The notes under the pieces were generated by a model. That model searched no databases. It saw only the letters and a program-made list of their open reading frames with translations, and had not been told where the DNA came from. From Candidatus Eiseniibacteriota bacterium (GTDB taxonomy: Bacteria > Eisenbacteria > RBG-16-71-46 > JABDJR01 > JAWXBZ01), in assembly GCA_034440375.1 (NCBI GenBank), contig JAWXBZ010000105.1, forward strand, positions 2,269 through 66,268: DNA of 64,000 nt. The letters run 5' to 3'. Below are positions 15,732 to 38,204 of this stretch, one piece after another. A program made the position numbers and the translations under genes. How positions within the stretch are numbered: position 1 is the first letter of the stretch; every line of letters begins with the position of its first letter.

Positions 15732-16763
15732 GTGATGAGACCTCGCGAACCATTCGAGCTTTGGGGAGACCGTGTGAACCAATCACAGGCCCATTCCTCT
15801 GCGTCCGAGCGAACCGGACCCGCCATCGTGCTGAAGGCCGGCCGCCGGATCATGCGACAAAGCTGGGACAACTGGCTGCTGATGCTCATCACGCTCGTGA
15901 CGACGACGATCGGCCTTGGTGCCGCGGTCGGGAGCTTGCTGTTGGCGCGTGATCGGGCGCCGTGGCCCTGGAGCGGAAGCGAGTGGGTTCTGCTGGCCGG
16001 GCTGTCGATCATGGTTGGTCTGTTCGGATCGTACCTGACGGTACAGCGCCGCCGGCTCTTCAGCCTCCAGCTCGAACTCGAGGAGGCCCGCGAGGCCGCC
16101 ATTGGCTCCAAGTCACGCCACCATGCCCGGCTGATGGCCCTCAGCCGTGTCAGTCAGACGATGGCCAACGAGAACGACATCGAGTCGATCTTCGCCGGCA
16201 TGACCCAGCACTGCTTCAGCCTGTTCGAGTGCGATCGCGTGTCGGTGATGCTGGTCGACCGCCAGACCGGCGAACTTGTCGTGCGGGCTGCCATGGGACA
16301 CCAGGGCGCGTCGGAAATGATCGGAACGCGCCAGCAACCCGGCAAGGGTATCGCCGGCTGGGTGGCCCAGCATCGTGAATCCGTCATCCTGGGCCAGGTC
16401 GTCGAGCCGGGACGGTTCGAAGGCTTCGAACCGAGCAAGGGGGGTCTGACAGCGGCCATCGTGGTGCCCATCGTGGTCCGCGATGAACTGGTCGGCGTCA
16501 TGAGCCTTTCCAGTCGGAAGCCCGGCATTGAGTATTTCGATGAGGACCTGAAAGCTCTCGAGATATTCGCGGGGAACGCCGGGATCTGTCTGCGGCATAC
16601 GGAGCAGGCGGGGTGGCTGCTCCAGCGCGTCGAGCTATTGGAAAGTACGATCCGTCCGGCAGCGACAAGCCACGGGATCAGGTCGGTCAATTGTCTCCCG
16701 GCGGTGGGGACTGATAATGTCGAAGCGTGCGACACCGACGAACGGCTGCGACCGGCCTCCTGA
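15732..16763 (+). CDS. GAF-domain membrane protein
   Basis: Two N-terminal TM helices followed by a GAF-like region (ESIFAGMTQHCFSLFECDRVSVMLVD...GKGIAGWVA). Confidence 0.55.
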   Translation: MMRPREPFELWGDRVNQSQAHSSASERTGPAIVLKAGRRIMRQSWDNWLLMLITLVTTTIGLGAAVGSLLLARDRAPWPWSGSEWVLLAGLSIMVGLFGSYLTVQRRRLFSLQLELEEAREAAIGSKSRHHARLMALSRVSQTMANENDIESIFAGMTQHCFSLFECDRVSVMLVDRQTGELVVRAAMGHQGASEMIGTRQQPGKGIAGWVAQHRESVILGQVVEPGRFEGFEPSKGGLTAAIVVPIVVRDELVGVMSLSSRKPGIEYFDEDLKALEIFAGNAGICLRHTEQAGWLLQRVELLESTIRPAATSHGIRSVNCLPAVGTDNVEACDTDERLRPAS

Positions 16764-19291: not shown

Positions 19292-20247
19292 TGATGAGTT
19301 TTCTTGTCGTGGAGCGGCCGGGAATCCTGACAACCATCCAGGATCCCGGGCGGCCCGGCCTGGCTCATCTCGGCATCTCGATGTCGGGTGCAGCAGACGA
19401 TTTATCGATGCGCCTGGCCAATCGGCTGGTCGGAAACGTTGATCGCGCCCCTGTCCTTGAGATGACGCTGATCGGCGGCCAGTACGCCTTTCACGGTCCG
19501 GCCCACATCGCCCTGACGGGAGCCCCGATGCCGCTCCGGCTGGCCGGAGCCCCCGTGCCCATGTGGCGAACGCTGGCCGTTCGCGCCGGCGAGCGACTGA
19601 CAATCGAAGGAACAGCCACCGGTGCCCGCGCCTACCTGGCTGTCCGGGGAGGCATCGACGTGACGCTCCTCTTTGGCAGTGCCTCGACACATCTCGTGAG
19701 CGGAGTGGGCGGCCTCGGCCGTGCCCTTCGGGCCGGCGACATGCTGGGCTTCGGCACCTCGGGTTTCGAGCGCCAGCCCCCGGCCGATGGCCCGCCCCCG
19801 GGCCTCGACCGGCTTATCGAGCGCCTGTCGGCGGATCGAGCGATCCGCATCACACCCGGCCCGCAGGCCGACTGGTTCACCGACGCGGCGCGGCAATCGA
19901 TGGCTCTCGATACCTGGACGGTTCACGACCACTCTGACCGAATGGGCATCCGCCTGATCGGGCGGGCGATCGAACGCCATCGGCTTGATGAGCTCCTGAC
20001 CGAGGGGGTGACGCTCGGGGCGATCCAGGTGCTGCCCGATGGCCAGACGGTTCTTCTCTTCGTGGAGCACCAGACCACCGGCGGCTACCCGAAGATCGCC
20101 AACCTCGCGGCCGTCGACCGGCACCGGGCCGGCCAGCTCCGGCCACAGGCCCGGGTTCGGTTCGAATGGATTGACTTTGGTAAGGCCAGGCAACAACTGC
20201 GGGAGCAGGAGGCGGCCCTCGAGGCCTGTCTTCCGGGGGTCGTGTGA
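19291..20247 (+). CDS. pxpC: 5-oxoprolinase subunit C (PxpC/KipA)
   Basis: The ATG at 19291 overlaps the pxpB stop (ATGA). The N-terminus MMSFLVVERPGILTTIQDPGRPG is typical of PxpC. Confidence 0.8.
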   Translation: MMSFLVVERPGILTTIQDPGRPGLAHLGISMSGAADDLSMRLANRLVGNVDRAPVLEMTLIGGQYAFHGPAHIALTGAPMPLRLAGAPVPMWRTLAVRAGERLTIEGTATGARAYLAVRGGIDVTLLFGSASTHLVSGVGGLGRALRAGDMLGFGTSGFERQPPADGPPPGLDRLIERLSADRAIRITPGPQADWFTDAARQSMALDTWTVHDHSDRMGIRLIGRAIERHRLDELLTEGVTLGAIQVLPDGQTVLLFVEHQTTGGYPKIANLAAVDRHRAGQLRPQARVRFEWIDFGKARQQLREQEAALEACLPGVV

Positions 20248-21047
20248 CGGCCAGCATGGATCTGAATGCCGACGTTGGCGAATCGCCATCCGCACTGGCG
20301 GACGGCTCGGAGGAGCGGCTGATCGCGATGGTCAGTTCGGTCAATGTCGCCTGCGGTGGTCATGCCGGCGATCACGCCTCGATGCACGCGGTGGTGATGC
20401 TGGCGATGCGTCACGGCGTCGCCGTCGGCGCACACCCGGCCTATCCGGATCGCCGGAACTTCGGCCGCCGCGAACTGGACATGAGCCACGTAGATCTCAC
20501 GGCATCGATCAAAAGGCAGGTGACCGACTTCGTGAACATCGCCGGCTCGCTGGGGACGACGATCCGACACATCAAGCCTCACGGGGCCCTCTACAACGCG
20601 GCGGCCCACGATCGGCCTGTGGCGGAATTGATCGGGCAGTGTCTCCTGCCGTGGCGCGGGCGTGTCCATCTGGTCGGCCTGGCCGGATCGATCATGCTCG
20701 AGGTCTGGGCATCCATGGGATTCCGGGTGGCCGCCGAGGCCTTCGCCGACCGTCGCTACGAGCCCGACGGCCGGCTGCGCTCGCGCGAGCATGACGATGC
20801 CCTGATCCACGACAAGGCGGATGCGGCGCGTCAGGCGATCCAGATTGCGGAGCAGGGCACCGTGCTTGCCCTCGACGGCTCGGTTCATGCGTGCCGCGCC
20901 GACACCATCTGCCTGCACGGTGACGCGGCGGGTGCGATGGAGCGGGTAATCGAAGTTCGGCGTGCCCTGGAAGCGGGGGGCATCCGAATCGCCGCGCCAT
21001 GGCCCGTATTCGGATCGCCCTTGAATACGCCCCCCGGTGTACCATGA
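20244..21047 (+). CDS. pxpA: 5-oxoprolinase subunit A (PxpA, LamB/YcsF family)
   Basis: DLNADVGES...VNVACGGHAGD...IKPHGALYN motifs. Either a GTG start at 20244 overlapping the pxpC stop, or the ATG at 20256. Confidence 0.8.
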   Translation: MTASMDLNADVGESPSALADGSEERLIAMVSSVNVACGGHAGDHASMHAVVMLAMRHGVAVGAHPAYPDRRNFGRRELDMSHVDLTASIKRQVTDFVNIAGSLGTTIRHIKPHGALYNAAAHDRPVAELIGQCLLPWRGRVHLVGLAGSIMLEVWASMGFRVAAEAFADRRYEPDGRLRSREHDDALIHDKADAARQAIQIAEQGTVLALDGSVHACRADTICLHGDAAGAMERVIEVRRALEAGGIRIAAPWPVFGSPLNTPPGVP

Positions 21048-21068
21048 CCTTCTCCCGGGGAGTACGCG

Positions 21069-24000
21069 ATGGCCGGAACACGTTTTAATGTCGTCGATGC
21101 GCGCCTGGCGCGCCCGAGATTGCCGCAGGTGCTGGAGCGTAGCCGGCTCCTCGATCAGATCCGTACCGGCCTTCTTGAATTTCCCCTGACACTGATCACG
21201 GCCGGCGCCGGCTACGGGAAAACCACCCTCATGGCGTCCGCGGCCGAACTCAACCCGGACGGCACCCTCTGGTACTCCCTCGGCGAGGAGGATGCCGACC
21301 TCACGCGATTCCTGCAGCACATCGCCGCGGCGCTCCAACGTCGCAATCGGCGGCATGGCCGGGGCTTGAGCGCCCTCCTGGGCGAAGGGGCGGTGGGTGC
21401 CCGATCGGCCACGGCCGCGGCCGGAGCGTTGCTGAACGACTTCGAGAGGATTCGCGAACCGCTGATCCTGGCCATCGACGATCTTCACCTGGTGAGCGGC
21501 TCGACCGAAATCAGCCAGTTCCTGGAAACGCTGGTCGAGAACAATCGCACCCTTGTCCACCTGATGCTGGCCACCCGGACCGAACCACCGCTTCCACTCG
21601 GCCGATTACGGGCAAGGCGAATGATATTCGAGCTGGGTTCCGCGGATCTGGCGTTCACGTCGGACGAGATGCGCTCACTTCTCGAGGAAGTCCATCATCG
21701 CCCCGTGTCCGAATCGGATCTGGAGTTTCTCACCCGATTCACGGAAGGATGGGTCACGCCGATCCAGCTGGCGCTTCAGGCGGGTCGCACGCTGGCTCCC
21801 CAGGACTTGCCGCGAGCGCTGGAGCGAGCCATGGCCTCCGGCGCGACGCTCCATGACTATCTGGCCGTCGAGATCCTGGATCGACAGTCGCCCGAATGGC
21901 GACGCTGGATCCTGGAGAGTTCGCCCTTCGAGGAGATCGAGCCCGATCTGCTTCGGTCGGTCCTTGGTGAGTCGGATCCGGAAGGACGCCTGCGCGAGCT
22001 GCTGCGAAAGAGCCTGATTCAGGCGTTTGAGAGTGATTCCGGGATCGTGTACCGGTACCACACGCTCCTGCGTGATCTGTTCATGCGGCGATTTCGCGCG
22101 GAGCTGCCGGAGGCCGATCGTGAAAAGCTCCACACGTCGGCAGCGGCCTGGTTTCGACGCCGGGGCGATCTGGTCGCGGCGGCACGGCAGCTGGCCTTCC
22201 TCGAGGATCGGACGGCGCTGGCGGAGTTTCTTCGCGCCGAGGCCCTGACGCTGCTCGACTCGGGGCAGTACCAGGCCCTGGCCCACTGGTTGGAACAGTT
22301 ACCCCCCGGGCTGCTTGACGAAGACCCCTGGCTCCGGTTGCGCCGGGGCGATGCCCGCCACTATCTCGGCGACTGGCCGGGCGCCGAGCTTGACTACGAA
22401 CGGGCCCAGGCCCTCTTCCAGGATCAGGGAGACACGAGCGGCGAAGCCTGGACGACCCTTGGCCTCGCGCGACTCTGGAATCTTCGGGGTCAATCCCGAC
22501 GGGCCGTGGAGGAAGGCGAGGCGGCTTTGGGCACGCTCACCGACTCGGGCGATCGCTCGTCGGAAGAGCTGGAGGTTCGGCTATTGAAGGTCGTTTCCGG
22601 TGCCCATTACTACCTGGGGCAGTATGCGGACGCCATTCGCCGACTCGATCGACTGGAGGAACTGGCACGAGGGCACGCGGAGCGACAGGCCGTCGTCTGG
22701 AACAATCGCGCGGTGGTGCACGCCAGCCAGGGCAACTTTCCGGCCGCTGCCGCGGCCTTTGAAAAGGGATTGCGGCGTCCCGGCGCCCGACAATCGCCGC
22801 GGGCCGCGCTTCACCTGTCGAATCTCGGACTCCTGCTGAACGAAATGGGGGATCCGGAGCGTGCCCGGCCGCTCTTCGATGAGGCGCTCCGTCGAGCCCG
22901 GCGCTGGCAGAATCGGAGTCACATCCTCTCGGCGCTGCTCGGGCAGGCGCACCTGAACTATCGGTTGGGAAACATGGAGGCGTGTCTTGCGCGCCTGCGG
23001 GAGGCGGATGAGCTCAACGAGGAGCTTCGGATCCCGCTCCTCAAGTCCGATGCCCTGGCCCTCCGATCGCGCGTCCTGGCAGAGGCCGGCCAGTTTGCGG
23101 CGGCGCGCGAGCTGCTGCGGAGCGGGCTTGCCGCCTACGGCCCGGCCACGCGCGATTCGCACTGGCTGCTGTACCGGGTGGAGGATGCCGTGCTCGACCT
23201 TCGTGCCGGACGGTTGGAGGAAGCCTATGCCGCCCTCACGGAACTGCGTCCAGTGGCCTTCGAACTCGAGGCACTCTTTCCCCGGATGCGACTTCTCTTC
23301 CACCGCGGCGAGGCGGCGCGCCAGCTGGGGCTCGATTCCGCCGAAGAGGAAATGTCCGAAGCCCTCGGCCTCGGCCGATCACTCGGATATGACGCCTTTC
23401 TGCGGGCCGAATTTCGGCGCGATACGGCGCCCTTCTTCTACCTTCTGCGGCGAGGCCGGGAATGCGAGTTCATCGCCCGGCTGGCAGCGGGCGCCGGCTC
23501 GACGCTCGAGCTGGAGATTCTCCAGATGGCCGGGGAGGAGTCGCTGCCGCCCGAAGCCGGACGCGCCATTCTTCAAATCCTGGGTGAAATCGGCGGTCCC
23601 TCAAGCCATCGGCGCATCAGTGCGTCCGCCTGGGCCGCGGACGGAGCGCTGGTCCGCTCGGCGCGCGCGGCCCTGGAGGCCATCGAACGGCGGCACCCCG
23701 AAAGCCGGACGCTGAAGTCCTCAGGCCTCCCTGGCCTGCGCCTGACAACGCTCGGCCCGCTGCACCTCTTTGGACCTCTCGGCGAGATCGAGCCGGCGCG
23801 GTGGCGGTCACAGCGGGCCCTGTCAATCTTCCTCTACCTGGCCATGCGGGGCGGGCGCGGGGTGCCCCGGGATCGCCTGGTCGAACTCTTCTGGCCGGGA
23901 CGGCAGCGGCGCAGTGCCCAGGGCAATTTTCATCCGACTCTCTCCTACATCCGGGGCGCCCTCCGCGACGTCAGCGAGGGTCAGGTCGTGGTCGTCCGGA

Positions 24001-24476
24001 ATGCGCTGTACCAGCTCGATCCCGACCTCCTCCTGACAATTGATGCCCATCGCTTCGAGGCCCTGGCTGTTGAAGGACGCACGAGGACCAAACCGGCGGA
24101 CCGGATCAAGACGCTGGAGGAGGCGGTAGCCCTGTATCAGGGCGATTTCCTGGATGGCCGCGATGAGCCCTGGACGGACGAAATCCGCACCCGACTGGCA
24201 CTTGGCTTCGAAAATGTGCTGGCGGCGCTGGCGGCGCTGCTGGTCCAGGGCAACGAGCCAGCCCGGGCCATTCCCGTCTGCCGGCGCCTCCTGGACCGGA
24301 GCCCCTACCGGGAAGAGGTTCACGTCCGCCTGATGGGGTGCTACAATCTGATTGGCGATCGTCATGCAATACTCGAGCATTACCGACGACTGACGCGCCT
24401 GCTTCGCGAGGACCTGGGATCCGAGCCGCTCCCGGAAACGACTCGCTCGTACGAATCCTTGATTGCCGCAACTTAA
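21069..24476 (+). CDS. Large ATP-dependent transcriptional regulator: MalT-like N-terminal P-loop ATPase, TPR-like repeat region and a C-terminal OmpR-type winged helix plus BTAD (SARP-type) module
   Basis: N-terminus RLARPRLPQVLERSRLLDQIRTGLLEFPLTLITAGAGYGKTTL resembles the MalT N-terminus, with a Walker B at LILAIDDLH. The C-terminal 250 aa has a wHTH (LRLTTLGPLHLFG...RALSIFLYLA...) followed by a BTAD (AVALYQGDFLDG...RLMGCYNLIGDRHAILEHYRRL). Confidence 0.7.
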   Translation: MAGTRFNVVDARLARPRLPQVLERSRLLDQIRTGLLEFPLTLITAGAGYGKTTLMASAAELNPDGTLWYSLGEEDADLTRFLQHIAAALQRRNRRHGRGLSALLGEGAVGARSATAAAGALLNDFERIREPLILAIDDLHLVSGSTEISQFLETLVENNRTLVHLMLATRTEPPLPLGRLRARRMIFELGSADLAFTSDEMRSLLEEVHHRPVSESDLEFLTRFTEGWVTPIQLALQAGRTLAPQDLPRALERAMASGATLHDYLAVEILDRQSPEWRRWILESSPFEEIEPDLLRSVLGESDPEGRLRELLRKSLIQAFESDSGIVYRYHTLLRDLFMRRFRAELPEADREKLHTSAAAWFRRRGDLVAAARQLAFLEDRTALAEFLRAEALTLLDSGQYQALAHWLEQLPPGLLDEDPWLRLRRGDARHYLGDWPGAELDYERAQALFQDQGDTSGEAWTTLGLARLWNLRGQSRRAVEEGEAALGTLTDSGDRSSEELEVRLLKVVSGAHYYLGQYADAIRRLDRLEELARGHAERQAVVWNNRAVVHASQGNFPAAAAAFEKGLRRPGARQSPRAALHLSNLGLLLNEMGDPERARPLFDEALRRARRWQNRSHILSALLGQAHLNYRLGNMEACLARLREADELNEELRIPLLKSDALALRSRVLAEAGQFAAARELLRSGLAAYGPATRDSHWLLYRVEDAVLDLRAGRLEEAYAALTELRPVAFELEALFPRMRLLFHRGEAARQLGLDSAEEEMSEALGLGRSLGYDAFLRAEFRRDTAPFFYLLRRGRECEFIARLAAGAGSTLELEILQMAGEESLPPEAGRAILQILGEIGGPSSHRRISASAWAADGALVRSARAALEAIERRHPESRTLKSSGLPGLRLTTLGPLHLFGPLGEIEPARWRSQRALSIFLYLAMRGGRGVPRDRLVELFWPGRQRRSAQGNFHPTLSYIRGALRDVSEGQVVVVRNALYQLDPDLLLTIDAHRFEALAVEGRTRTKPADRIKTLEEAVALYQGDFLDGRDEPWTDEIRTRLALGFENVLAALAALLVQGNEPARAIPVCRRLLDRSPYREEVHVRLMGCYNLIGDRHAILEHYRRLTRLLREDLGSEPLPETTRSYESLIAAT

Positions 24477-24488
24477 GGTGTCTAAAGG

Positions 24489-27062
24489 ATGAGATCGGGC
24501 AACGGCCGGACCGTGACCAGAATCCAGATTCCATTTCGCGCCATCGTCCTCCTGGCATGCGTCCTGCTGCCTGCTGCCCTTCCCGCCCCCGCAGTCGCCT
24601 CGGAACCCTGGATGTGGGATCAGGACGAGGACGGCATCGACGATCGACTGACGGCCACATTCCAGCAGGGGATTTCCGCCGCCTACGAGAATGGCGATCC
24701 GGAAGGCCGGCTGCGGTTCGACGTATCAACTCTGAACAACGCGCTCCAGTACGGCGGCTACATCCTGTATGACCACCCGCCGACCACGCTTGACAGCCTG
24801 GCCCTGGCAGGCGCCGGCGCCGAGGTCATCACGCGGTTCATCTCGGTGCCCTACATCCGCGTGCGGGCACTCTACCCGAGCCTGGTCGCCATTGCCGCCC
24901 AACCCGGCGTGGAGCGCGTCGAAGCGGTGACGCTGATGTTCCCCACCAACTGGAGGACCACCGGTGCCGTCGGCATCCGAGGTGGCGGAAGCGGCGCGGC
25001 TCCGGCACTTCACGAACTCGGTGGCCCCACCGGCAGTGGCTCGGTCGTGGCGATTCTCGATACGGGAATCAATGACACGCCGATCGGTGCCTATCCCGGC
25101 CATTCCGACATTGCCGGAAAAGTACTGGGGGGCAGCTCCTACTCCGGACCCGGCCCACTCGGTTACACGAACTGGGGATCCAGCGTCAATCCGGCCCAGT
25201 CGACGCCCGGCCTGTCGAGCTACCACGCCACCCACGTCGCGGGGACCATCGCCGGAGCCGGCCGCGACCGAACATTTGGCGGCATGGCGCCCGACGCGCG
25301 ACTGGTCGACGTCAAGGTGCTGGATGACTCTGGAACGGGGTACGGCCTGGCGGAGGGGCTTGAGTGGTGTCTCCAGAACCGGACCCGCGTCTGGGACCCC
25401 ACGCACACGGGCATCGACGTCATCAACCTGAGTCTCACCTCGATCGATCCCTCGGACGGTCAGGATTGTGTCTGCCGGCTGGTCAATGCCGCCGCCGCCA
25501 GTGGAATCGTTGTCGTGGCCGCCGCCGGCAATGATGGTCGTTGTAAATTCATCCCCGCGCCAGGTGCCGCGGATCAGGCCATCACCGTCGGTGCCCTCGA
25601 TCTGGATGTCGCATCGGCATCGAGCCGGCCGGCGCTCGCCACCTTTTCCAACGACGGTCCGCGAAACGACGACCTGGATGGCGGTCACGCCGACGAACTG
25701 AAACCCGACCTGGTGGCACCGGGCACCCAGATCGCCGCCGCCTGGGGCGCCCCGCTCGGCACGGGCCAGGGTTGGCGCCGGAGCAGCGGGACGAGCATGG
25801 CGGCTGCCACCGTTTCGGGCGTGGTGGCCCTGCTTCGCGAGACCAGCCCCACCGCGTCGCCCGATCAGATCCGAGAGATACTCCGCCGGACGGCCCGGCA
25901 CCGGACCGACACCACCCTCGGTTGTTCCATCGGCGCCGATCCGTACGGGATCGAGCCGGACTGGCGGGCCGGCTTCGGCTTCGGCGAACTGGATGCCCTC
26001 GCCGCCTGGGAAGAGCTGGTTCATGAGACAACCACCCAGTATGTAAACCTGTCAGCGGAGTTCCAGGCCGGTTCGGGTGAGATCGAATTCGCCTGGACCA
26101 CGCAGCGGGAGTCCGGAACCACCAGTTTCCTGGTCGAGCGGGCCGATGATCTGGGCGGCGCACCGGGAACATTCACGCCGGTTTCGCCGGCTGTTCCGGC
26201 GGTCGGCTTTTCCAATCTCGCCCTGGGCAACCGGACGACCTATCTCTGGTCCGACCCGGTGCCGGCCGGTCGCAAATTCTGGTACCGGGCGCGTACGCTG
26301 GGCGGCCCCACGACCATATCGTCGTCGATCCCGGCTCGAAGCGAGGACCCCATAGGGCGTGCGGAGATCACCTTCTGGCACAACCGCCCGGAACTCGATT
26401 GGACGATGCAGTTCGGTTCCGGTCCCTGGATTGCCCCGCCGGATTGGAGCTCACCCCTGGCGATCGACGCGGACCTGAACTCCGCAGCACCCTTGCCCAG
26501 CGCCGATCCCGAGGACAAGTACCAGGGGATCCTGGTTCGATCCCTCTATGCCAGCGACATCCCCGCGTGGCTCCTGCCTCCGTCTGCATCCCACCCCTGG
26601 TGGTTCGAAACCCTGGAAGGCAACTCGCCCGATCATTCGGGGCTGGTCACCGACTTCCGAATTGTGGTGGGGATGACTCTGTACCAGTCGTCAGACCCGA
26701 TGCCACAGTTGACCATCGAGGGTTCGCCCACCGTTGTTGTCATCCCGACGATCACCATCTCGGGGACGATGGCCAATGGGGCACCGGACGCCGGGCCCCG
26801 TTGGCTGCGCGTGCGGGTCAACCCGGCCCGTGGCCCGGTTCAACTGAACCTTCCGCCTGGCAGCGATGCCTCGACCCTGACCATTCTTGATATCCAGGGA
26901 CGCATCGTGCGCCGCTTGCCGATTCCGGCTACGGCTGGTGAGTCCGTCGTCACCTGGGACGGGAGCAATGAGTCCGGCGAGGAGACGCCCTCCGGCCGCT
27001 ATTTCGCTCGGCTCGACGATGGCACCACGCGACAGGTTGTGGGCGTGGTCCGGATTCGCTGA
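24489..27062 (+). CDS. Secreted S8-family serine peptidase (subtilisin-like) with a C-terminal T9SS type-A/FlgD-Ig-like domain
   Basis: Signal peptide; catalytic triad motifs VVAILDTGIND (Asp), HATHVAGTIAG (His) and SGTSMAAATVSGVVALL (Ser); C-terminal tail TLTILDIQGRIVRRL...SGRYFARL.... Confidence 0.8.
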   Translation: MRSGNGRTVTRIQIPFRAIVLLACVLLPAALPAPAVASEPWMWDQDEDGIDDRLTATFQQGISAAYENGDPEGRLRFDVSTLNNALQYGGYILYDHPPTTLDSLALAGAGAEVITRFISVPYIRVRALYPSLVAIAAQPGVERVEAVTLMFPTNWRTTGAVGIRGGGSGAAPALHELGGPTGSGSVVAILDTGINDTPIGAYPGHSDIAGKVLGGSSYSGPGPLGYTNWGSSVNPAQSTPGLSSYHATHVAGTIAGAGRDRTFGGMAPDARLVDVKVLDDSGTGYGLAEGLEWCLQNRTRVWDPTHTGIDVINLSLTSIDPSDGQDCVCRLVNAAAASGIVVVAAAGNDGRCKFIPAPGAADQAITVGALDLDVASASSRPALATFSNDGPRNDDLDGGHADELKPDLVAPGTQIAAAWGAPLGTGQGWRRSSGTSMAAATVSGVVALLRETSPTASPDQIREILRRTARHRTDTTLGCSIGADPYGIEPDWRAGFGFGELDALAAWEELVHETTTQYVNLSAEFQAGSGEIEFAWTTQRESGTTSFLVERADDLGGAPGTFTPVSPAVPAVGFSNLALGNRTTYLWSDPVPAGRKFWYRARTLGGPTTISSSIPARSEDPIGRAEITFWHNRPELDWTMQFGSGPWIAPPDWSSPLAIDADLNSAAPLPSADPEDKYQGILVRSLYASDIPAWLLPPSASHPWWFETLEGNSPDHSGLVTDFRIVVGMTLYQSSDPMPQLTIEGSPTVVVIPTITISGTMANGAPDAGPRWLRVRVNPARGPVQLNLPPGSDASTLTILDIQGRIVRRLPIPATAGESVVTWDGSNESGEETPSGRYFARLDDGTTRQVVGVVRIR

Positions 27063-27184
27063 TCAAACGAACCTGGCTGTTGCTACCCCTCCTGGATGCA
27101 TGAACGGATCCATGTTCAATCATTTTATGTAAGTTAATTGTTTTCAACAAGATGTGGCCTTCCGGCTTGAATTAAATCCCGGTT

Positions 27185-27206
27185 ACTCAATACCCACTCA
27201 ATACCC
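27185..27206 (+). promoter_or_regulatory. Perfect 11-bp tandem direct repeat ACTCAATACCC x2 in an AT-richer intergenic region
   Basis: Read directly from the sequence. It lies about 75 bp upstream of the ATG at 27282. Direct repeats with one-helical-turn periodicity are the usual binding-site architecture for OmpR/SARP-type winged-helix regulators, established for Streptomyces SARPs. Confidence 0.4.
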
Positions 27207-27281
27207 CCCCGACAAACTTCCTCCTGTCAGTCACCCAGAGCCGGATGGCTGGTCCGATGGCCCCACCGAGGAGGTTTCAAG

Positions 27282-27854
27282 ATGCATCGCTTGACGTGCA
27301 AGGCGAGTCGCGCCGCCCAAATCATCCCACTGGTCCTGGTGGCCGGGGCGATGGCGCTGTCGATTCAAGCATTTCGATCCGGATCAACCGACAACTCCGG
27401 AGTGACGCCCGCCCTTGTCACTCCGAATTACGAAGTCTCGACCTGCAACCTGCGTCATCCGATCGAAGCCCGGCTGGTGCCGCAGGGCGCAATGACCCGG
27501 GGCGGCACGGTGCGCGTGGCGCTCGAGGTTGAGGCCACGGTGTCCCTTTCCGCCGCCGAGGCCCGAATCCTCTCCAGCGGCGGGGCCACGATTCTCGGAC
27601 GTCAGCGGGCCGAACTCGGAACACTCGACGCCGGTGATGTCCGGCGCATCGAGTTCACCCTGCGTCTTCCGGAGAACGGCCGGCGGTTCGTTCTACAAGT
27701 TCTGACCACCGGCGAATCAACCACCGGCCCGATGAATCGTCTGGCGATGCTGAACATCCTGCCCGACGGCCCGGCCGATCCGGGGCAGGTCGTGACAACC
27801 CCCACCGGCGAATCGATCCGCCAGTACGCCTCGAGCGGGCGGAGGATCAACTGA
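27282..27854 (+). CDS. Hypothetical secreted protein
   Basis: Signal peptide (IIPLVLVAGAMALSIQA). The stop overlaps the downstream ATG (TGATG), indicating translational coupling with the large exoprotein gene. Confidence 0.45.
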   Translation: MHRLTCKASRAAQIIPLVLVAGAMALSIQAFRSGSTDNSGVTPALVTPNYEVSTCNLRHPIEARLVPQGAMTRGGTVRVALEVEATVSLSAAEARILSSGGATILGRQRAELGTLDAGDVRRIEFTLRLPENGRRFVLQVLTTGESTTGPMNRLAMLNILPDGPADPGQVVTTPTGESIRQYASSGRRIN

Positions 27855-30800
27855 TGCGCCTCCTCGATCGCCTCCGTCATGGGAAGGGCTGTCCGAACAA
27901 GTCCTTCGCCTACCTCATCGCCCTGATCATCCTGATCACGCTCGTCGCGACCCTCGTGCTCACCTCCTTCGTCACGTCCGCCGAGGCCGCCTTCACGGCC
28001 AGCGGCCGCTTCCTGTATGCCGACAAGCTCTGGGACAAGGACGGCTACACGGGTCAGGAACAGAACCTGCCCATCCGCCACGCGCGGGTCGAAATCGTCG
28101 ATGTTCCGTCGCTCCAGGTGATCGGATCCGGCGTTGCCGACGCCGACGGCAATTACTCGATCACGGTCACGCCACTGGCGCCGATCGTGCCGGTCAACGT
28201 GGTAGCTCGTGTCCTGACCGACGGGCGCACCGCCGGCTACGAAATTCGTATCGTCGACGAACTGACGCGCGGCCTGGGTGAGCCCGCCGTCATCGGCAAC
28301 ATTCACGCCGTCCTCAACGATCCGGTCCTGAATCACAACCAGGCCCAGCCGCTCAATTTCGGCACGTTTCTACTCGAGGATCCGGACGGCACGGGTGTGG
28401 CCCAGGCCTTCAACATCTTTGACTGTGCCGTGGATTACTTCGACTGGATGGCCCAGCCGGGCCTCTTGAACCGGCTGCCGAATGCCACCGAATACGTCAT
28501 TTTTGCGTGGTCGCCGACCAGCTCCAATGAGGGTTCCAACTACAGCGGCCACGCAATTCTTCTGGCATCCCCAGGCCAGGGGAACGACACGGACGCCTGG
28601 TCCGACACGGTCATCCTCCATGAAACCGGCCACTGGTTCGATGACTTTTTCTCGAGGTCGGACAATCCTGGCGGCCCGCACGGGATAGGTGACAACAACG
28701 CCAATGTGCTGCTGGCCTATGGTGAAGGTGTGGCCACGTTTCACTGCGCCAAGGTCCGCAAGCTCCGGGCCACCACCCGCCTGAACCTGATCGCACAGCC
28801 GATCGACAGCCACGTCAGCATCTACGGCGACCTGATGATTCCGCCCGATTCGATGATGGCCGGCGGCCTGTCGTTCTCCTACGACTTCGAGACCGGCGTC
28901 GTCTTCCAGCCGGGCCTGCCGCCGGGTGGCTTCTTTATCGGCCAGCGGGGCAGCGCCAACGAAACAAACGTTACCTCGGCCCAGTGGGACCTGGTGGACG
29001 ACGCAGGAACCCCGGATGAAACCCCGGGCGTCGACGACGATCAGGTTGGTGTCAACGATGCCATCCCGTTCGCGATCGAGCGCATCTGGTTGCCCGGCCT
29101 CCCAGCCGGCAATGCGGTCACGATCGAGGACTATTACCAGGGGTGGTACGCCCAGAACGGCGCCAATTTCATGCGCGCCGGCGTGGACGACATCTTCTTC
29201 AACCTGTCGCTGATGGAGTTCTACCCCGACTCGTACGAGCCGGATGGCACCGCGGCGCAGGCAACTTCGATTGCGCCACTGGCCTACTCCGTGACGACTG
29301 GCGCGCACCTGGTCATCAGCGAGATCGACCTCGGCGCCCAGGATGCCGTGGAGGTCTTCAACCCGTCCGACGCCGCGATCGACATGACCGGCTGGCAGAT
29401 CCAGGTGTACGTCAATGGCGACGCCGCCCCGGTGGTCAGCCGCATCTACACGTTTCCAGCCTTCACGCTCGATCCGGGTGAGGCCGTGGCGCTGCTCGAG
29501 CGCGGCGATCCGCTGAACAACGGCGCGCACCACCTCTACGGCGGCAGCACCGTGCCCAACTCGTGGAACGCCTCATGGAACTACGGCCTCGACGGGGCCG
29601 TCGTCCTGCGGGATGCGTCCAGCCAGGCCGTGGACTTTGTGAGCTGGCGACATGGGAACGGCACCCCGAACAGCACCCCGGTACCGTCGGGCACGGCCTT
29701 CACCGGCCTCCTCGACAGTCCCCCAGCGGCATCCAACCTGGCGCGTGACATCAACGGCACGGATACCGATGCCGCGGCCGATTTCACCCCAGAGGACGGC
29801 ACGCTGGCCTCGGCCAACGGCACCTTCTCACGGCATCAGACTCTGTTCGACCTGGGCGATGCCGACCTGATCCGTTTCGACGCCGTGGCCGGCATGCGCT
29901 ACGGCTTCGAGGTCCGGGCATTTTTCAGCGCCAGCGATCCGTTCGTCGAGCTCCTCTCACCGACGGGCGCGATCCTCGGGTCGAACGACAACTCGGACCC
30001 CGGCATCCGGGACGCCCGCATCGATCTCTTCGCCGGAACGACCGGCACTTACTATCTCAAAGTGCGCCACGTCGGTCCGCACACCGACTGGGCGGCCTAC
30101 AACGTGGCGGCCTTCCAGCGTCCGCCGAGCACGACGCTGCTGGCTCCTGGTGGCATCACGGCCACGGCCCAGAATGTCAACAACATCAACGATCCGGTCC
30201 ACCTGGACTGGCTGAACGGGGCGCCCTACGACTCGGTGCGGCTGTATCGCAACGGGGCGCTGCTCCAGACACTCCCGGGCTCCTCGACCAGCTACGACGA
30301 CCTGGCCGACCGCGGTGTGTATACCTATGAAGTTTCGGGTGTCGGCGGGTTGAGCGAAACCGCCAGGGCCTCGACCAACGAATACGCCGGTGTCATCGGC
30401 TGCTTTGTTTCCGAGGACTTCGAGCAGGGGAACGCCAACGACTGGATCAGCCCCCCCAACACATGGGGCGTCACGGCGCTGGCGGAGGGGGGCGTGTTCG
30501 GTTACACGGACAGCCCGGTCGGCACCTCTCGCGGTTGTGCCGGCGTCCTGGAAAGTTGCACCACCTCCACCCCGACCGTCCTCCGAGTCCCGGTTCGGCT
30601 CCCGCCCAATTCGCACCTCATGTTCGACCAGATCTGCATCACCGAACATTGCGCACCGACGCCATGCGATCTCGGCATCGTCGAGATCTCCACGGACGAG
30701 GGAACCAGCTGGACGGAAATCGCCCGCTACGATCAGGCCAGCGATCCGGCCTGGACCGACAATGTGGCTGATCCGACCGACTGGCGGCCCGCGGATCTCT

Positions 30801-31237
30801 CACTGGACGATTTCATCGGACAGCAGATCCTGGTCCGTTTCCGGGTTCAGACAGATCCGCTGGCGGAGCTGGACGGCTGGTATCTCGACAATGTCCGGGT
30901 CAACGAGGGTGATTGCACGCTGGCCGCCGTCGGGCCGGCGGCCGGTGCCGCGGGCCTCACCGGTTTGATGGCACCGTATCCCAATCCAATGACCGGCACC
31001 GCCCGGTTCGCGTTCCAACTGGCCACACCGGTGACAAACGTCTCGATGTCGGTTTATGACATCTCGGGTCGCCTCGTCCGCCGTGAGTCACTCGGCCATC
31101 TCGATACCGGCACGCACGCCTGGCTCTGGGACGGTCGCGGCGATTCCGGAAGCGAGACAGCCAACGGTGTCTACTTTGCCCGGCTCGAAGCCGCCGGCAA
31201 ATCGTTCACGCAGAAGGTTCTTAAAGTCACGCGGTAG
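27854..31237 (+). CDS. Large secreted multidomain protein: HExxH zincin-like segment, lamin-tail domain, pre-peptidase C-terminal domain and a C-terminal T9SS type-A/FlgD-Ig-like domain
   Basis: N-terminal TM/signal anchor. VILHETGHWFDD is an HExxH motif. HLVISEIDLGAQDAVEVFNPSDAAIDMTGWQIQV is a lamin-tail domain. DADLIRFDAVAGMRYGFEV...GTYYLKVRH is a PPC-like domain. C-terminal tail VSMSVYDISGRLVRR...NGVYFARL. Confidence 0.6.
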   Translation: MRLLDRLRHGKGCPNKSFAYLIALIILITLVATLVLTSFVTSAEAAFTASGRFLYADKLWDKDGYTGQEQNLPIRHARVEIVDVPSLQVIGSGVADADGNYSITVTPLAPIVPVNVVARVLTDGRTAGYEIRIVDELTRGLGEPAVIGNIHAVLNDPVLNHNQAQPLNFGTFLLEDPDGTGVAQAFNIFDCAVDYFDWMAQPGLLNRLPNATEYVIFAWSPTSSNEGSNYSGHAILLASPGQGNDTDAWSDTVILHETGHWFDDFFSRSDNPGGPHGIGDNNANVLLAYGEGVATFHCAKVRKLRATTRLNLIAQPIDSHVSIYGDLMIPPDSMMAGGLSFSYDFETGVVFQPGLPPGGFFIGQRGSANETNVTSAQWDLVDDAGTPDETPGVDDDQVGVNDAIPFAIERIWLPGLPAGNAVTIEDYYQGWYAQNGANFMRAGVDDIFFNLSLMEFYPDSYEPDGTAAQATSIAPLAYSVTTGAHLVISEIDLGAQDAVEVFNPSDAAIDMTGWQIQVYVNGDAAPVVSRIYTFPAFTLDPGEAVALLERGDPLNNGAHHLYGGSTVPNSWNASWNYGLDGAVVLRDASSQAVDFVSWRHGNGTPNSTPVPSGTAFTGLLDSPPAASNLARDINGTDTDAAADFTPEDGTLASANGTFSRHQTLFDLGDADLIRFDAVAGMRYGFEVRAFFSASDPFVELLSPTGAILGSNDNSDPGIRDARIDLFAGTTGTYYLKVRHVGPHTDWAAYNVAAFQRPPSTTLLAPGGITATAQNVNNINDPVHLDWLNGAPYDSVRLYRNGALLQTLPGSSTSYDDLADRGVYTYEVSGVGGLSETARASTNEYAGVIGCFVSEDFEQGNANDWISPPNTWGVTALAEGGVFGYTDSPVGTSRGCAGVLESCTTSTPTVLRVPVRLPPNSHLMFDQICITEHCAPTPCDLGIVEISTDEGTSWTEIARYDQASDPAWTDNVADPTDWRPADLSLDDFIGQQILVRFRVQTDPLAELDGWYLDNVRVNEGDCTLAAVGPAAGAAGLTGLMAPYPNPMTGTARFAFQLATPVTNVSMSVYDISGRLVRRESLGHLDTGTHAWLWDGRGDSGSETANGVYFARLEAAGKSFTQKVLKVTR

Positions 31238-34677: not shown

Positions 34678-35313
34678 ATGTCCGTGAAAAGGATTGACGT
34701 CGGCGCAAAGACCGGGCACCCGGAAACGGGTGAGCTGCTGGATCAGCTTGAAGGACGGCTGGCTTTGGACCGACTCCGGGAAGTTGCGACGCACGTGCTG
34801 GCCTGCCGACGCTGCCAAAGGTCGATTGAGGAGCTGAAGCGCGTAACCAACTCGCTCGGCGCATCGACACTGGAGTCGCCCCCGGAGTGGCTGGCGAACT
34901 GGGCGGACGATCGGCCGCGGGATCAGCCGAAAAAGGTTCCGAAGGGTCTGATGCCAATCCTGAGGCTGGTCCTCGATTCATGGCGTCTCGAACCGCTGGG
35001 GGCTCGCGGGGTCGCCCCTTCCAGCCGCCGTCTCCTCTATCGGGCCGGCTCGGTCGATCTGGATATTGAACTAGACCTGGGACGCGCGGGCCGGACGGCC
35101 ACGGTTCGGGGCCAGATTCTTGATGCCACCGTGACCGGTGGGCGACAGTTCTCGGAAGGGCACGTTCGGTTACTCGCCGGCCGGCGGCTCGTGGTCAAGG
35201 TGCCGCTCGGCACCCGGGGAGACTTCCGGCTGAGCGACGTGCCCCGCCGCGTCTACCACCTGAATATCGCGGCGGCCGGATTCCGGGTTCGAGTCGATTC
35301 ATTCGAGATATGA
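34678..35313 (+). CDS. Putative zinc-binding (ZAS-type) anti-sigma factor, soluble
   Basis: H-x3-C-x2-C motif (HVLACRRCQ) near the N-terminus, immediately downstream of the ECF sigma gene. No evident TM helix. The stop overlaps the next gene's start (ATGA). Confidence 0.55.
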   Translation: MSVKRIDVGAKTGHPETGELLDQLEGRLALDRLREVATHVLACRRCQRSIEELKRVTNSLGASTLESPPEWLANWADDRPRDQPKKVPKGLMPILRLVLDSWRLEPLGARGVAPSSRRLLYRAGSVDLDIELDLGRAGRTATVRGQILDATVTGGRQFSEGHVRLLAGRRLVVKVPLGTRGDFRLSDVPRRVYHLNIAAAGFRVRVDSFEI

Positions 35314-38111
35314 CCCTGTCCGTTCGCGTCGGCGCGCTGGAGCGCGACCTCTTGAACAGCCGGGGTGATGCCATCCGACCGGCCCATTTCAAAAAATACC
35401 TGGCCTCGCTCCAGCGGACCACGCGTCGCGATCCATTGAAAGCTGAGTCCGCATCGAGCCGGGCCATGCTGGTTGCCCGGGCCGTGGGCGATGGCGTCGC
35501 GCTGGCGCATCTGCAGCGGGCACGGGCCCACGCGCGTCGCGCGAGTAACCGATGGCCGGAGGCGGCCTCGGACTATCGCGCGGCTCTCAAGCGATTTCAG
35601 GATCTGGATCGGGCGGACGAATGCGCGTTCACCCGTATCGGCCTGATTGATGCCCTCATGTACCTCGGGCGCTACGAGGATGCCCTGTTTGAGGCGCACG
35701 CGGCGCGACGAACGGTCCAAAGGCTTGGCGATCCGATTCGCGGCGCCCGCATCGAAAACAACATCGGAAACATTCACCATCGGCGCGATGACCTCGAAAC
35801 GGCCATCCAATGGTATGACCGCGCGCGGCGGACATTTCGGCGGCGGCACGACGACTCCGCGCTGGCATTGGTTGAGTTCAACCGCGGAAACGTGCTCGGG
35901 CCGATGGGGCGCACCGCCGAGGCGCGGATCGCCTACGAAACCGCCGGGGCCATTTTTTCCCGGCAGGGCTTCACGGACCGGACGGCCCAGGTGCGGTACA
36001 ACCTGGCCTACCTTCGCTTTCTCGAAAACCGGTTGCCGGAGGCTCTCGAGGAGTTGGAGCAGGTCCGCGTGACCTTTCAGGCGACGGGCGATGAACGTCA
36101 CCTCGGCCTGACGCGACTCGATGAGTCTGAGATCCTTCTCCGCCTGAATCTTTGGGATGACGCCGGAGAAGCGGCTACCGAAGCCATCCGCCGGCTGAAG
36201 GCACTCGGTCTCGACTACGAGCGGGCGAAAGCCCTCACGTTCCTGGCCCTGGCCACGGCCCGTCGAGGCGATCCGTCGGAGGCGGCGGGCCTGCTGGACT
36301 CGGCCCGCGAACTTTTCAAGACGGAAAAAAACCGCTGGTGGGTCGGTGAGACCAGCCTTCAGCTGGCCCGATTGGCTGTCGGTCGAGGTGCCTGGTCAGA
36401 GGCACGGCTGGAAGCGCAGCGGGCACGCCGGACGTTCGCCCGAAGAATATCCAACGAAGCGCTGGGGCGGGCCCTGCTGATCGAAGCGGAGGCGGCCCGC
36501 GGAGCCGGCCGCAGGGCCCAAGCCGGGCGCACGCTGGAGGCGGCGCTTCAGGCCGCCCGGCGGAGTCGCTCGCCCTGGCTCACGGCGGAAGTTCGCGAGT
36601 TGGCGGGACTCCTGGCACTTGACCGGGGCGATGCTGCGACGGCACGGCGCCACTTCAACCAGGCCATCAAGGCCATTGAACAGCTTCGTGCATTGCTCTC
36701 CGGTGACGACCTCCGGGCGGGGTTTCTGCGCGAGCGGGATCGCCCCTATCTGGAATTGGCCCGTCTCGAACTCGTGGCCGGCCGGCCGCGACAGGCGTTC
36801 GAACTATTCGAACGCGGGCGGGCGCGGGCCCTGCTCGACCTCCTGACGGACATGCCGGCGGGAAAGCGGGCACCAGGCAAGGGTCGCAGGAAATTGGAGA
36901 CACGAGCCAGGCACCTGCTGTCGGAATTGGGGCGCCGTTATCACGAAGACGACGTCGCCGAATCGTCCGGCCAACGACAGTGGACCAGCGCCGGAATATC
37001 CGAAGCGCGGGAATCGCTCGAGGCGGAAGCGGCCCGGCTTCTGCGTCGCGTGGATCAAAGCCCTGGTTCGATCGCCGGGCGGCGTCCCGGTCTCGGCGAG
37101 GTGCAACGTCTCCTTCGTCCCGGCGAAACCCTTCTTTCTTTCCACGAAATCGGCGGCCGGGTCGGGGTATTTCGGATTACCCGGACCCGCTTCGACTCGG
37201 TGCCGGACCTGGCCGGCGCGGCCGACATCGAGAGGCTGGCGGAATCGCTGCGATTTCAGTGGGGGCGGTTCCGCTTCGATGCGGAATTACTGGCACGCCA
37301 CGGCGCTCAGTTGGAAAGCATGGCCCGGAGCGATCTTCGGCGCCTTCATGAGCTCTTGATCTCACCCTTTGATTCTCCCTCGGAGAAGGGGCCGCTGATC
37401 ATCGTTCCGACGGCTGGACTTCGCTCGGTCCCTTTTTCCGCACTCGACGACGGAACGGCGTGTCTGGCCCGGAGGCGGGCCATCGTCGTGTCGCCCAGTG
37501 CGGCGGTCTGGAGCCGTTGCCGGACCCACGAGACGGGCGATGGGGGCCTTGAGAGGGCCGTGCTCATTGGTATCCCCGACAAGCGGGCTCCGCAGGTTGC
37601 CGACGAAATACGGGAGTTGGCCGGGCGGCTACCGGGTGCCCGGGTATTCCTCGGTTCGGAGGCAACGGCGCACCAATTTCTGGCATCCCTGCCGAAGGCC
37701 TCGATCTTGCATGTAGCCACGCATGGCATGTTCCGTACCGATCGCCCGAACCTGTCGGGAGTCCGACTGTCCGATCGATGGGTCTACGGCTATGAAGTTG
37801 CCCGGGGAATGATGCGGGCCCGCCTGGTCGTGCTATCGGCCTGCGTGACCGGGCTTTCCGCCGCCTGGGCCGGCGGCGATTGGATGGGCCTGGCCCGATC
37901 CTTTCTGACCGCGGGAGCCCGCCGGGTTCTGGTAGGCCTCTGGGATGTCGATGACGATGCCACCCGGCAATTGATGGGACATTTTTACCGCTTTCTGATC
38001 AACGAAGGGCATCTGCCGGCGGAAGCGCTGGCCCGGGCCCAGGCCGAAATGGCGTCCAGCGGCTGGCACCCGTACTACTGGTCCGGCTTTTCGCTCATGG
38101 GAGATCTGTGA
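35310..38111 (+). CDS. TPR-repeat CHAT-domain protein (caspase-like His/Cys peptidase)
   Basis: About 600 aa of TPR-like repeats followed by a CHAT domain (LIIVPTAGLRSVPFSAL...ASILHVATHGMFR...ARLVVLSACVTGL...WSGF) with a His/Cys dyad. Confidence 0.75.
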   Translation: MTLSVRVGALERDLLNSRGDAIRPAHFKKYLASLQRTTRRDPLKAESASSRAMLVARAVGDGVALAHLQRARAHARRASNRWPEAASDYRAALKRFQDLDRADECAFTRIGLIDALMYLGRYEDALFEAHAARRTVQRLGDPIRGARIENNIGNIHHRRDDLETAIQWYDRARRTFRRRHDDSALALVEFNRGNVLGPMGRTAEARIAYETAGAIFSRQGFTDRTAQVRYNLAYLRFLENRLPEALEELEQVRVTFQATGDERHLGLTRLDESEILLRLNLWDDAGEAATEAIRRLKALGLDYERAKALTFLALATARRGDPSEAAGLLDSARELFKTEKNRWWVGETSLQLARLAVGRGAWSEARLEAQRARRTFARRISNEALGRALLIEAEAARGAGRRAQAGRTLEAALQAARRSRSPWLTAEVRELAGLLALDRGDAATARRHFNQAIKAIEQLRALLSGDDLRAGFLRERDRPYLELARLELVAGRPRQAFELFERGRARALLDLLTDMPAGKRAPGKGRRKLETRARHLLSELGRRYHEDDVAESSGQRQWTSAGISEARESLEAEAARLLRRVDQSPGSIAGRRPGLGEVQRLLRPGETLLSFHEIGGRVGVFRITRTRFDSVPDLAGAADIERLAESLRFQWGRFRFDAELLARHGAQLESMARSDLRRLHELLISPFDSPSEKGPLIIVPTAGLRSVPFSALDDGTACLARRRAIVVSPSAAVWSRCRTHETGDGGLERAVLIGIPDKRAPQVADEIRELAGRLPGARVFLGSEATAHQFLASLPKASILHVATHGMFRTDRPNLSGVRLSDRWVYGYEVARGMMRARLVVLSACVTGLSAAWAGGDWMGLARSFLTAGARRVLVGLWDVDDDATRQLMGHFYRFLINEGHLPAEALARAQAEMASSGWHPYYWSGFSLMGDL

Positions 38112-38204
38112 TGCGCCGTGACGATTGGGCTGGCCACCGGCCGGGGGGGGCCTGTACTCTTTGATTCCCGCCAAGGACTCATGCCGCCGAAAGGGAATTC
38201 TGTC

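Follow-up and report, generated by a model that had tools for sequence, protein, structure and literature searches.

MalT, the STAND activator (MalT clade, or LAL) of the Escherichia coli maltose regulon, carries its DNA-binding domain at the C-terminus. AfsR and the other 'large SARPs' of Streptomyces likewise combine a STAND NTPase with TPR repeats, but in these the SARP module, i.e. a winged helix-turn-helix (wHTH) followed by a bacterial transcriptional activation domain (BTAD), comes first, and a nucleotide-binding oligomerization domain (NOD) of the NB-ARC type is placed between it and the C-terminal TPR repeats. In all four described SARP classes (small, medium, large and SARP-LAL) the module is N-terminal (PMC10972967; bioRxiv 10.64898/2026.09.02.748808), and their hosts are actinobacteria, in which SARPs usually reside in biosynthetic gene clusters. 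The SARP-LALs (PimR, SanG, PolR) are hybrids of a SARP with a LAL/MalT-like ATPase that bind heptameric direct repeats (PMC10972967) and are devoid of TPR repeats (bioRxiv 10.64898/2026.09.02.748808). Here we describe a regulator gene on a 64,000-nucleotide stretch of DNA from a Candidatus Eiseniibacteriota bacterium (contig JAWXBZ010000105.1; the whole stretch is referred to as the window), whose product starts like a MalT and ends like a SARP. The protein most probably works like both, with a MalT-type switch driving a SARP-type output. We assign a probability of roughly 0.6 to the reading that it is a MalT-family STAND (NLR-like) transcription activator in which a SARP output takes the place of the LuxR-type one, and which activates genes for exported hydrolases through a conserved promoter box.

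Compared with MalT, the regulator has the NTPase, the winged-helix domain and the MalT-type TPR sensor in common, as well as the C-terminal position of the DNA-binding output and, presumably, the logic by which inducer and ATP lead to oligomerization. It differs in that the LuxR/GerE helix-turn-helix (HTH) of MalT is replaced by a SARP-type wHTH and BTAD, the MalT boxes by a predicted site of two 11-bp direct repeats in place of the -35, and maltodextrin use by a predicted regulon of secreted hydrolases. With AfsR, it shares the SARP fold together with a STAND NTPase and TPR repeats, yet the SARP module stands last instead of first (NOD, TPR, SARP) and the NTPase is of the MalT clade. Moreover, AfsR belongs to actinobacterial hosts and acts on antibiotic clusters, whereas the present regulator is found in Candidatus Eisenbacteria and is predicted to have other targets. 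The SARP-LALs, finally, are confined to actinobacteria and show the opposite order, SARP at the N-terminus and the LAL part at the C-terminus. The gene and its parts are as follows.

21069 to 24476, forward strand: regulator gene, 1135 aa, ATG start; MalT-clade STAND NTPase, TPR sensor and C-terminal SARP module.
21069 to 22103, forward strand: NOD of about 345 residues (about 1-345), composed of the NTPase, a helical domain and a winged-helix domain of the MalT type, with a conserved RYH motif containing H331.
21201 to 21224, forward strand: Walker A/P-loop, residues 45-52 (AGAGYGKT); G48, G50 and K51 invariant in 42 same-architecture homologues.
21477 to 21482, forward strand: Walker B acidic pair; D137 invariant and D138 at least 90% conserved, after a strand at 132-137 in the model.
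22104 to 23732, forward strand: TPR/MalT-type sensor superhelix and helical linker, about residues 346-888; all-helical over 348-875 in the model.
23733 to 24041, forward strand: OmpR/PhoB-type wHTH, residues 889-991; predicted DNA-binding domain from the model, the EmbR alignment and fold matches.
24042 to 24473, forward strand: BTAD (PF03704), residues 992-1135.

A MalT-type ATPase at the N-terminus had been proposed in the original prediction, which read the DNA without database searches, on the basis of the P-loop string LITAGAGYGKTTL (located at residues 41-53), and profile searches bear this out. The NCBIfam MalT model aligns to residues 9-560 (E 5e-65, 220.1 bits), MalT in the PDB (8bob) matches residues 9-420 by sequence (E 1e-37), and Pfam places AAA_22/AAA_16 at residues 26-168. 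Designed TPR proteins aside, the only sequence matches among solved structures were MalT 8bob and EmbR 2fez, and a Foldseek search with the full-length model returned MalT as the first match (E 8e-16). The switch residues G48, G50, K51, D137, R170 and H331 are conserved across the 42 homologues (H331 in at least 90% of them), and the MalT winged-helix family WHD_MalT (PF25873) is recorded for the 96%-identical protein P0001 and for all other orthologues. For NB-ARC (PF00931), no match was obtained on residues 1-400 at E up to 10. The proposed TPR middle is borne out by a TPR_MalT score of 52.6 bits (cut-off 45 bits) and a TPR_12 match (E 4e-18) in the central region. The protein is nonetheless not a MalT equivalog, because it has no LuxR HTH and its 220.1 bits fall below the NCBIfam equivalog cut-off of 537 bits. 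Pfam detected no LuxR/GerE HTH (PF00196) in the regulator; this domain is carried by those nearest relatives of its N-terminal half that have no SARP end.

In its place, the extreme C-terminus (residues 889-1135 of 1135) is, by profile, alignment and modelled fold, an OmpR-type wHTH followed by a BTAD, just as had been predicted. PF03704 matches residues 991-1130 over profile positions 1-144 of 146 (E 7.7e-24; 85.2 bits against a cut-off of 22.1), residues 15-247 of EmbR from Mycobacterium tuberculosis (2fez) align to residues 894-1124 as the best solved-structure sequence match for the wHTH and BTAD (E 2e-5), and the NCBIfam model of the SARP BagI/FevR aligns to residues 924-1124. A full-length AlphaFold (AF2) model built with the 42 homologues reached a mean pLDDT of 86.7, and a separate model of residues 880-1135 a pLDDT of 93 with a pTM of 0.87. 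Both models predict the same wHTH topology (strands 890-893 and 899-902; helices 915-927, 934-941 and 947-964; hairpin 974-983), after which the BTAD is all-helical. With the C-terminal model, the top six fold matches in the PDB are SARP modules, namely those of AfsR (8k60 chains I and J, 8hvr chain I; TM 0.73-0.78) and EmbR (2fez, 2ff4; TM 0.76-0.78), with E-values from 3e-11 to 4e-10 and TM-scores of 0.73-0.78 overall; generic TPR proteins come next at E ~1e-3. Profiles and structure prediction thus support a SARP module over a C-terminus composed merely of TPR repeats. EmbR itself differs from the regulator in that its module is N-terminal with an FHA domain behind it, and in that Ser/Thr phosphorylation, not a STAND switch, controls the protein.

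That such a domain order is rare was not borne out by a whole-library search with the C-terminal 235 aa or by two contig scans; the order is unusual only relative to characterised proteins. Among homologues it is frequent and spread over several phyla, with a MalT-like N-terminus and a C-terminal wHTH-BTAD in 44 of the 120 best ones. When residues 901-1135 were used as a query against 1.84 billion representatives, 44,950 matches were obtained at E up to 1e-3. In the best 150 of these, the module is C-terminal 124 times, makes up the whole protein 14 times, and is N-terminal in 10 and internal in 2 cases. Thirty-six of the 124 proteins with a C-terminal module measure at least 850 aa and 20 have a recognisable MalT-like N-terminus; some of the shorter ones may be gene fragments. 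In Pfam scans of ten such proteins, the succession of AAA_16/22, TPR_MalT and BTAD recurs. Full-length matches in species-representative genomes comprise, among those listed, Eisenbacteria, many Chloroflexota/Anaerolineae, WOR-3, a Paenibacillaceae metagenome-assembled genome (MAG) and others, and the matches listed also include metagenome contigs. The contig scanning drew on an alignment of 17 orthologues, and few close orthologues were added among the matches listed. Several homologues bear the automatic JGI name 'MalT/DNA-binding SARP family transcriptional activator'. A variation is seen in P0140 (1368 aa), which combines two BTAD matches with an NB-ARC NTPase and TPR repeats; one wHTH-BTAD match is at the extreme C-terminus (1141-1356).

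Seen from MalT, a C-terminal output is the normal order, since the DNA-binding domain of MalT is C-terminal as well. The simplest description is therefore that only the type of output domain changed relative to MalT, a LuxR-type domain being swapped for a SARP. Conversely, with neither the N-terminal module nor the actinobacterial context, the regulator falls outside the literature definition of the SARP family. No publication on a MalT-type NOD that carries a SARP at its C-terminus turned up in the accessible literature, and one may still exist. A MalT-type switch with a SARP output is common and already auto-annotated, yet it appears to be uncharacterised.

The open reading frame (ORF) is present as originally described, between pxpA (LamB_YcsF, 20244-21047), whose stop lies 21 nt upstream of the regulator start and which itself follows pxpB and pxpC, and a subtilase gene that begins 12 nt after the regulator stop codon. 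Sixteen orthologues of 1131-1204 aa (45-96% identity), drawn from independent ENA, NCBI, JGI and Logan assemblies, match the query along 99-100% of its length, with both ends at the same places. Two of the 16 are labelled Candidatus Eisenbacteria by NCBI, and the closest named relatives of the regulator are Candidatus Eisenbacteria MAGs. The neighbours are pxpBCA and secreted hydrolases, the nearest of which is the following.

24489 to 27062, forward strand: secreted S8 subtilase gene, the conserved partner, 857 aa; signal peptide and a FlgD_ig / type IX secretion system (T9SS)-type C-terminal domain.

That the regulator is linked to a protease is supported by synteny. In 11 of 11 Eisenbacteria-type loci (L001, L003, L005, L006, L007, L008, L010, L089, L090, L091 and the window), an orthologous S8 gene follows directly downstream, at distances ranging from a 4-nt overlap to ~150 nt, and the pairing persists down to 32-34% regulator identity. 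Near the Chloroflexota and other distant homologues that were examined, no S8 orthologue was found. The subtilase of the window matches Peptidase_S8 (E 4e-46) and FlgD_ig (E 2e-11), has a hydrophobic N-terminus and carries the triad (D/H/S) motifs ILDTG, HATHVAG and GTSMAA; its signal sequence and FlgD_ig/T9SS-type C-terminal domain indicate that it is exported. The adjacency of pxpA, by which the gene had been introduced in the original prediction, is not conserved. It was seen only in the window and the 96%-identical relative L089, and we therefore rejected a pxpA linkage as a conserved feature; upstream of the other orthologues lie a divergent Rrf2 gene, an acetyltransferase gene, ribD or a TPR gene. 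Separately, the window holds a second pair of a TPR protein and a subtilase on the forward strand (35310-39548), in which a 933-aa TPR_12 and CHAT protein (35310-38111) is followed after 6 nt by a 476-aa S8 protein (38118-39548). PADLOC returned weak generic matches only for this second pair.

In the intergenic regions of these loci one element recurs, represented by 13 instances, of two 11-bp direct repeats, 6 bp and a -10-like hexamer. A repeat follows the pattern RGTCAAGnnnn and the two together the consensus RGTCAAGnnnn RSTCAAKnnnn. TCAA of the first repeat and CAA of the second are invariant in all 13 boxes; the hexamer (nAnnnT) is fixed in spacing throughout, with A at position 2 and T at position 6 in 12 of 13 cases each. 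The instance in the window reads ACTCAATACCC ACTCAATACCC ccccga CAAACT (27185-27218) and falls, in forward orientation, within the 219-bp intergenic region after the S8 gene.

27185 to 27206, forward strand: predicted regulator-binding box, two 11-bp direct repeats, ACTCAATACCC twice.
27213 to 27218, forward strand: weak -10-like hexamer CAAACT, 6 bp after the box and 8 bp after the second TCAATAC heptamer.

Examples from other loci are GGTCAAGCCCG GGTCAAGCCCT ccgggg GAACCT in L001, GATCAAGCCCC GGTCAAGCCCC ggccgc GATGCT in L003 and GGTCAAGCGGG ACTCAAGCCCC gtcgtg TGAGAT in L010. When both strands of the 64-kb window were scanned with a weight matrix derived from the other loci only, the 27185 site came out best with 19.9 bits, against 9.9 bits for the next, and 19.9 bits were reached by 2 of 400 Markov shuffles. 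The repeat singled out in the original prediction is hence the sole window copy of a box that is conserved beside these genes in other genomes, and neither the weight matrix nor a pattern search revealed a second one upstream of the regulator, S8 or pxp genes. With matrices from which the scanned locus was left out, the boxes were the top one or two matches in each of the eight box-bearing loci, far over background (23.5 and 19.7 vs 4.5 bits in L001; 22.9 and 20.0 vs 3.5 bits in L005). A blind check on 1.45 Mb of loci outside the training set gave as best match (28.5 bits) a site in L091, between a 33%-identical orthologue and its S8 gene.

Repeats and hexamer of this kind adjoin the regulator gene in nine loci, and binding by its product is predicted. 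In the three most divergent orthologues (L008, L010, L091) the box stands directly before the S8 gene, and L008 has a second one before a second S8 gene. A box precedes the regulator-S8 unit in L001, L003, L005 and L006, and the next downstream gene in L001, L003, L005, L007, L089 and the window. What follows the downstream box is a second S8 paralogue (L003, L005), a TPR-containing 782-aa protein (L001), or a small exported protein together with a large LTD/T9SS-tailed protein (L007, L089, window).

This geometry resembles that of SARP sites, which consist of heptameric direct repeats, classically in 11-bp units, overlapping the -35 region (PMC10972967). AfsR sets two DNA-binding domains side by side on two 11-nt repeats, with the proximal site 8 bp upstream of the -10 (PMC11301090), and the whole site forms a 22-bp repeat (bioRxiv 10.64898/2026.09.02.748808). 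The predicted box is similar to this two-repeat site over the -35, close to the -10; if the heptamer is read as TCAAGnn, the second one ends exactly 8 bp before the hexamer. Besides, the putative recognition-helix residues N953, H955, P956, T957, Y960 and R962 are invariant in the 17 orthologues that share the box and not over the wider family.

Two further observations concern the surroundings of the boxes. Most intergenic TCAAG boxes are preceded, at a distance of 20-60 bp, by an AT-rich tract of ~30-40 bp, which comes to lie at about -60 to -100 relative to the predicted start (window 27110-27150; L001 9530-9572 and 15990-16025; L003 9560-9590 and 16045-16080; also L005 and L007). It is too distant for a canonical UP element and might serve another factor. 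A GAACAAT direct repeat with a spacer of a few bases, seen in L001 only, occurs twice in the leader that separates the box promoter of this locus from its 782-aa gene (16150-16240).

Ordinary promoters of these loci show an extended -10 (TGnTAnnnT), which in 8 of 10 loci is found between 30 and 110 nt before the start of the regulator, where ~0.04 per locus would be expected by a rough estimate from base composition. The box promoters have nAnnnT only, without the TG extension and without a -35 element, and therefore carry the signature expected of an activator-dependent promoter. Two promoters can be placed before the regulator, the proximal extended -10 and a distal box ~240-380 nt upstream (L001 9587, L003 9605, L005 9876, L006 9725, with regulator starts near 10001, or ~10202 in L005). 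The called gene start in L005 is apparently ~65 codons too early. A scan of 20200-27900 with sigma-70 and terminator consensus sequences yielded nothing informative. In the window, the link to the S8 gene is made by operon structure and not by the box, since no box precedes the regulator/S8 pair; the two genes are probably transcribed by read-through from pxp or from a GTGTACCAT element within the 3' end of pxpA, which is kept in L089. Behind the window box lie two genes.

27282 to 27854, forward strand: first gene after the box; its product is an exported protein of 190 aa with a hydrophobic N-terminus.
27854 to 31237, forward strand: second gene after the box; its product is an exported protein of 1127 aa with LTD (lamin-tail), InhA-like_MAM, FlgD_ig and Por_Secre_tail domains.

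This operon (27282-31237) is the only predicted direct target in the window. The 190-aa protein, which gave no Pfam or NCBIfam match, has counterparts in L007 (178 aa) and L089 (191 aa). Its neighbour contains HETGH at residue 256, within an N-terminal stretch of 480 residues for which no family match was found, and resembles Tox-MPTase3 weakly (E 0.08). It may be an unclassified secreted metalloprotease, an assignment that we keep tentative because its basis is the HETGH motif and a profile match at E 0.08.

Taken together, the following course of events can be proposed, with MalT and AfsR as models for the switch. At rest, the NTPase would hold ADP and the protein would be closed. An inducer bound at the MalT-type TPR sensor would cause exchange of ADP for ATP and self-association, and DNA binding would be gated in this way, as two C-terminal wHTH domains would come to lie side by side on the two 11-bp repeats. 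The box would then act in the -35 position, 6 bp before a weak -10, and BTAD and wHTH would recruit RNA polymerase in an AfsR-like manner. By analogy with these systems, box binding by the regulator would result in activation. Targets across the family would be exported hydrolases and T9SS-type cargo, including the S8 partner and often the regulator itself, which would generate positive feedback; in the window, the target would be the operon 27282-31237, with regulator and S8 gene probably co-transcribed from an upstream promoter. As to the ligand, speculative candidates are the products that the partner protease generates, for instance a peptide. More tentative than the assignment of the regulator, and possible rather than probable, is a wider proposal. 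According to this, proteins with a MalT-type NOD, TPR repeats and a C-terminal SARP would constitute a large multi-phylum class of STAND activators, none of them characterised, in which the Eisenbacteria group would be a master switch of secreted proteolysis, acting through the TCAAG 2x11-bp box with positive autoregulation. What such a switch senses might be the peptides that its partner protease sets free, which would make it a protein-foraging counterpart of the MalT/maltotriose loop.

Several points weigh against a box-mediated activation by the regulator. The wHTH on its own is not significant in Pfam (Trans_reg_C, E 0.08). The box is assigned to the regulator by co-localization and SARP-like geometry only, and within that geometry, the agreement in the 8-bp distance hinges on how the heptamer is delimited. 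No box stands before the regulator/S8 pair in the window, L007 and L089, and none was found in the ~9 kb available of L090. L127 has a 27.6-bit box on the reverse strand (5155-5188; ACTCAAGCGTC AGTCAAGCGCC ttcttg GATCGT) that is upstream of a 35%-identical orthologue and faces away from it; as the FG-GAP/T9SS-tailed gene on that side is convergent, there is nothing obvious behind this box. Lastly, -10 and -35 are putative labels in this phylum.

The alternative that best withstands the data, if still an unlikely one, is that the TCAAG box belongs to another DNA-binding protein, e.g. an OmpR/PhoB-type response regulator, and that the true targets of the regulator lie elsewhere. Response regulators of this type, which have the same wHTH class as the regulator, bind in tandem to two 11-bp direct repeats (as in the pho box) that substitute for the -35, so that the architecture of the box is typical of them in general; AfsR has itself been noted to be similar to GlnR and PhoP (PMC11301090). 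The missing box at the regulator/S8 pair of the window would also fit another owner, the pairing of box and regulator being a prediction. Across loci that vary in their other neighbours, however, the box stays with the regulator gene, and the remaining ~20 kb of each locus are free of it. A response-regulator gene is not conserved in the vicinity, and the recognition helix of the regulator is conserved together with the box. The regulator, for its part, has neither the receiver domain nor the phosphorylation control of PhoB/OmpR-type proteins, and has a BTAD and a STAND switch instead.

Rather less probable still is that the regulator does bind the box but mainly as a repressor or negative autoregulator. 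A site that overlaps the core promoter can occlude RNA polymerase, and four loci have the box in front of the gene for the regulator itself. What speaks for activation is the presence of a BTAD and a geometry identical to that of SARP-activated promoters (PMC11301090), along with the weakness of the box-adjacent -10 hexamers, which are without the -35 and the TGn extension that other promoters of these loci carry.

We regard it as very improbable that the pair serves in anti-phage defence or conflict, as a STAND/NLR-type system comparable to IetAS with the NTPase as the sensor of an invader and the subtilase as the effector. Defence systems commonly contain STAND NTPases with TPR sensors, the TPR-CHAT and S8 pair at 35310-39548 could be seen in the same light, and the S8 protein matches IetS weakly (E 1.5e-4). 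That match, however, reflects general similarity within the subtilase family, and the signal peptide and T9SS-type sorting domain of the S8 protein point to an extracellular location rather than to a cytoplasmic effector. PADLOC assigned no family to the regulator, whose C-terminus is, by fold match, a DNA-binding activator module. That the ORF is an artefact of two genes joined by a frameshift or misassembly can be dismissed, because the 16 independent orthologues are colinear and full-length, a further 28 distant homologues show the identical domain order, the AF2 model is confident along the whole protein, and no point in favour of a fusion turned up.

Elsewhere in the window, a 902-aa protein with two APH-type kinase-like regions (43317-46025, forward strand) is encoded behind three glycosyltransferase genes. 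It is followed, up to position 51312, by genes for an alginate-export-like outer-membrane protein and for two paralogous CarboxypepD_reg and FlgD_ig proteins.

In summary, every part of the regulator and its likely mechanism have close precedents, and it does not, therefore, embody a new principle. New here are the conserved box and the protease partnership. While the literature knows the SARP module as N-terminal and restricted to actinobacteria, the present data show it in wide use as the C-terminal output of MalT-type switches in uncultured phyla. The box and its target genes constitute a concrete and testable regulon signature in a phylum without cultured members. If the activator reading is correct, it would open a first way into the control of extracellular protein degradation in Eisenbacteria, and the regulator would represent a natural swap of output domains between MalT and AfsR, which are the best-studied bacterial activators of the STAND class.

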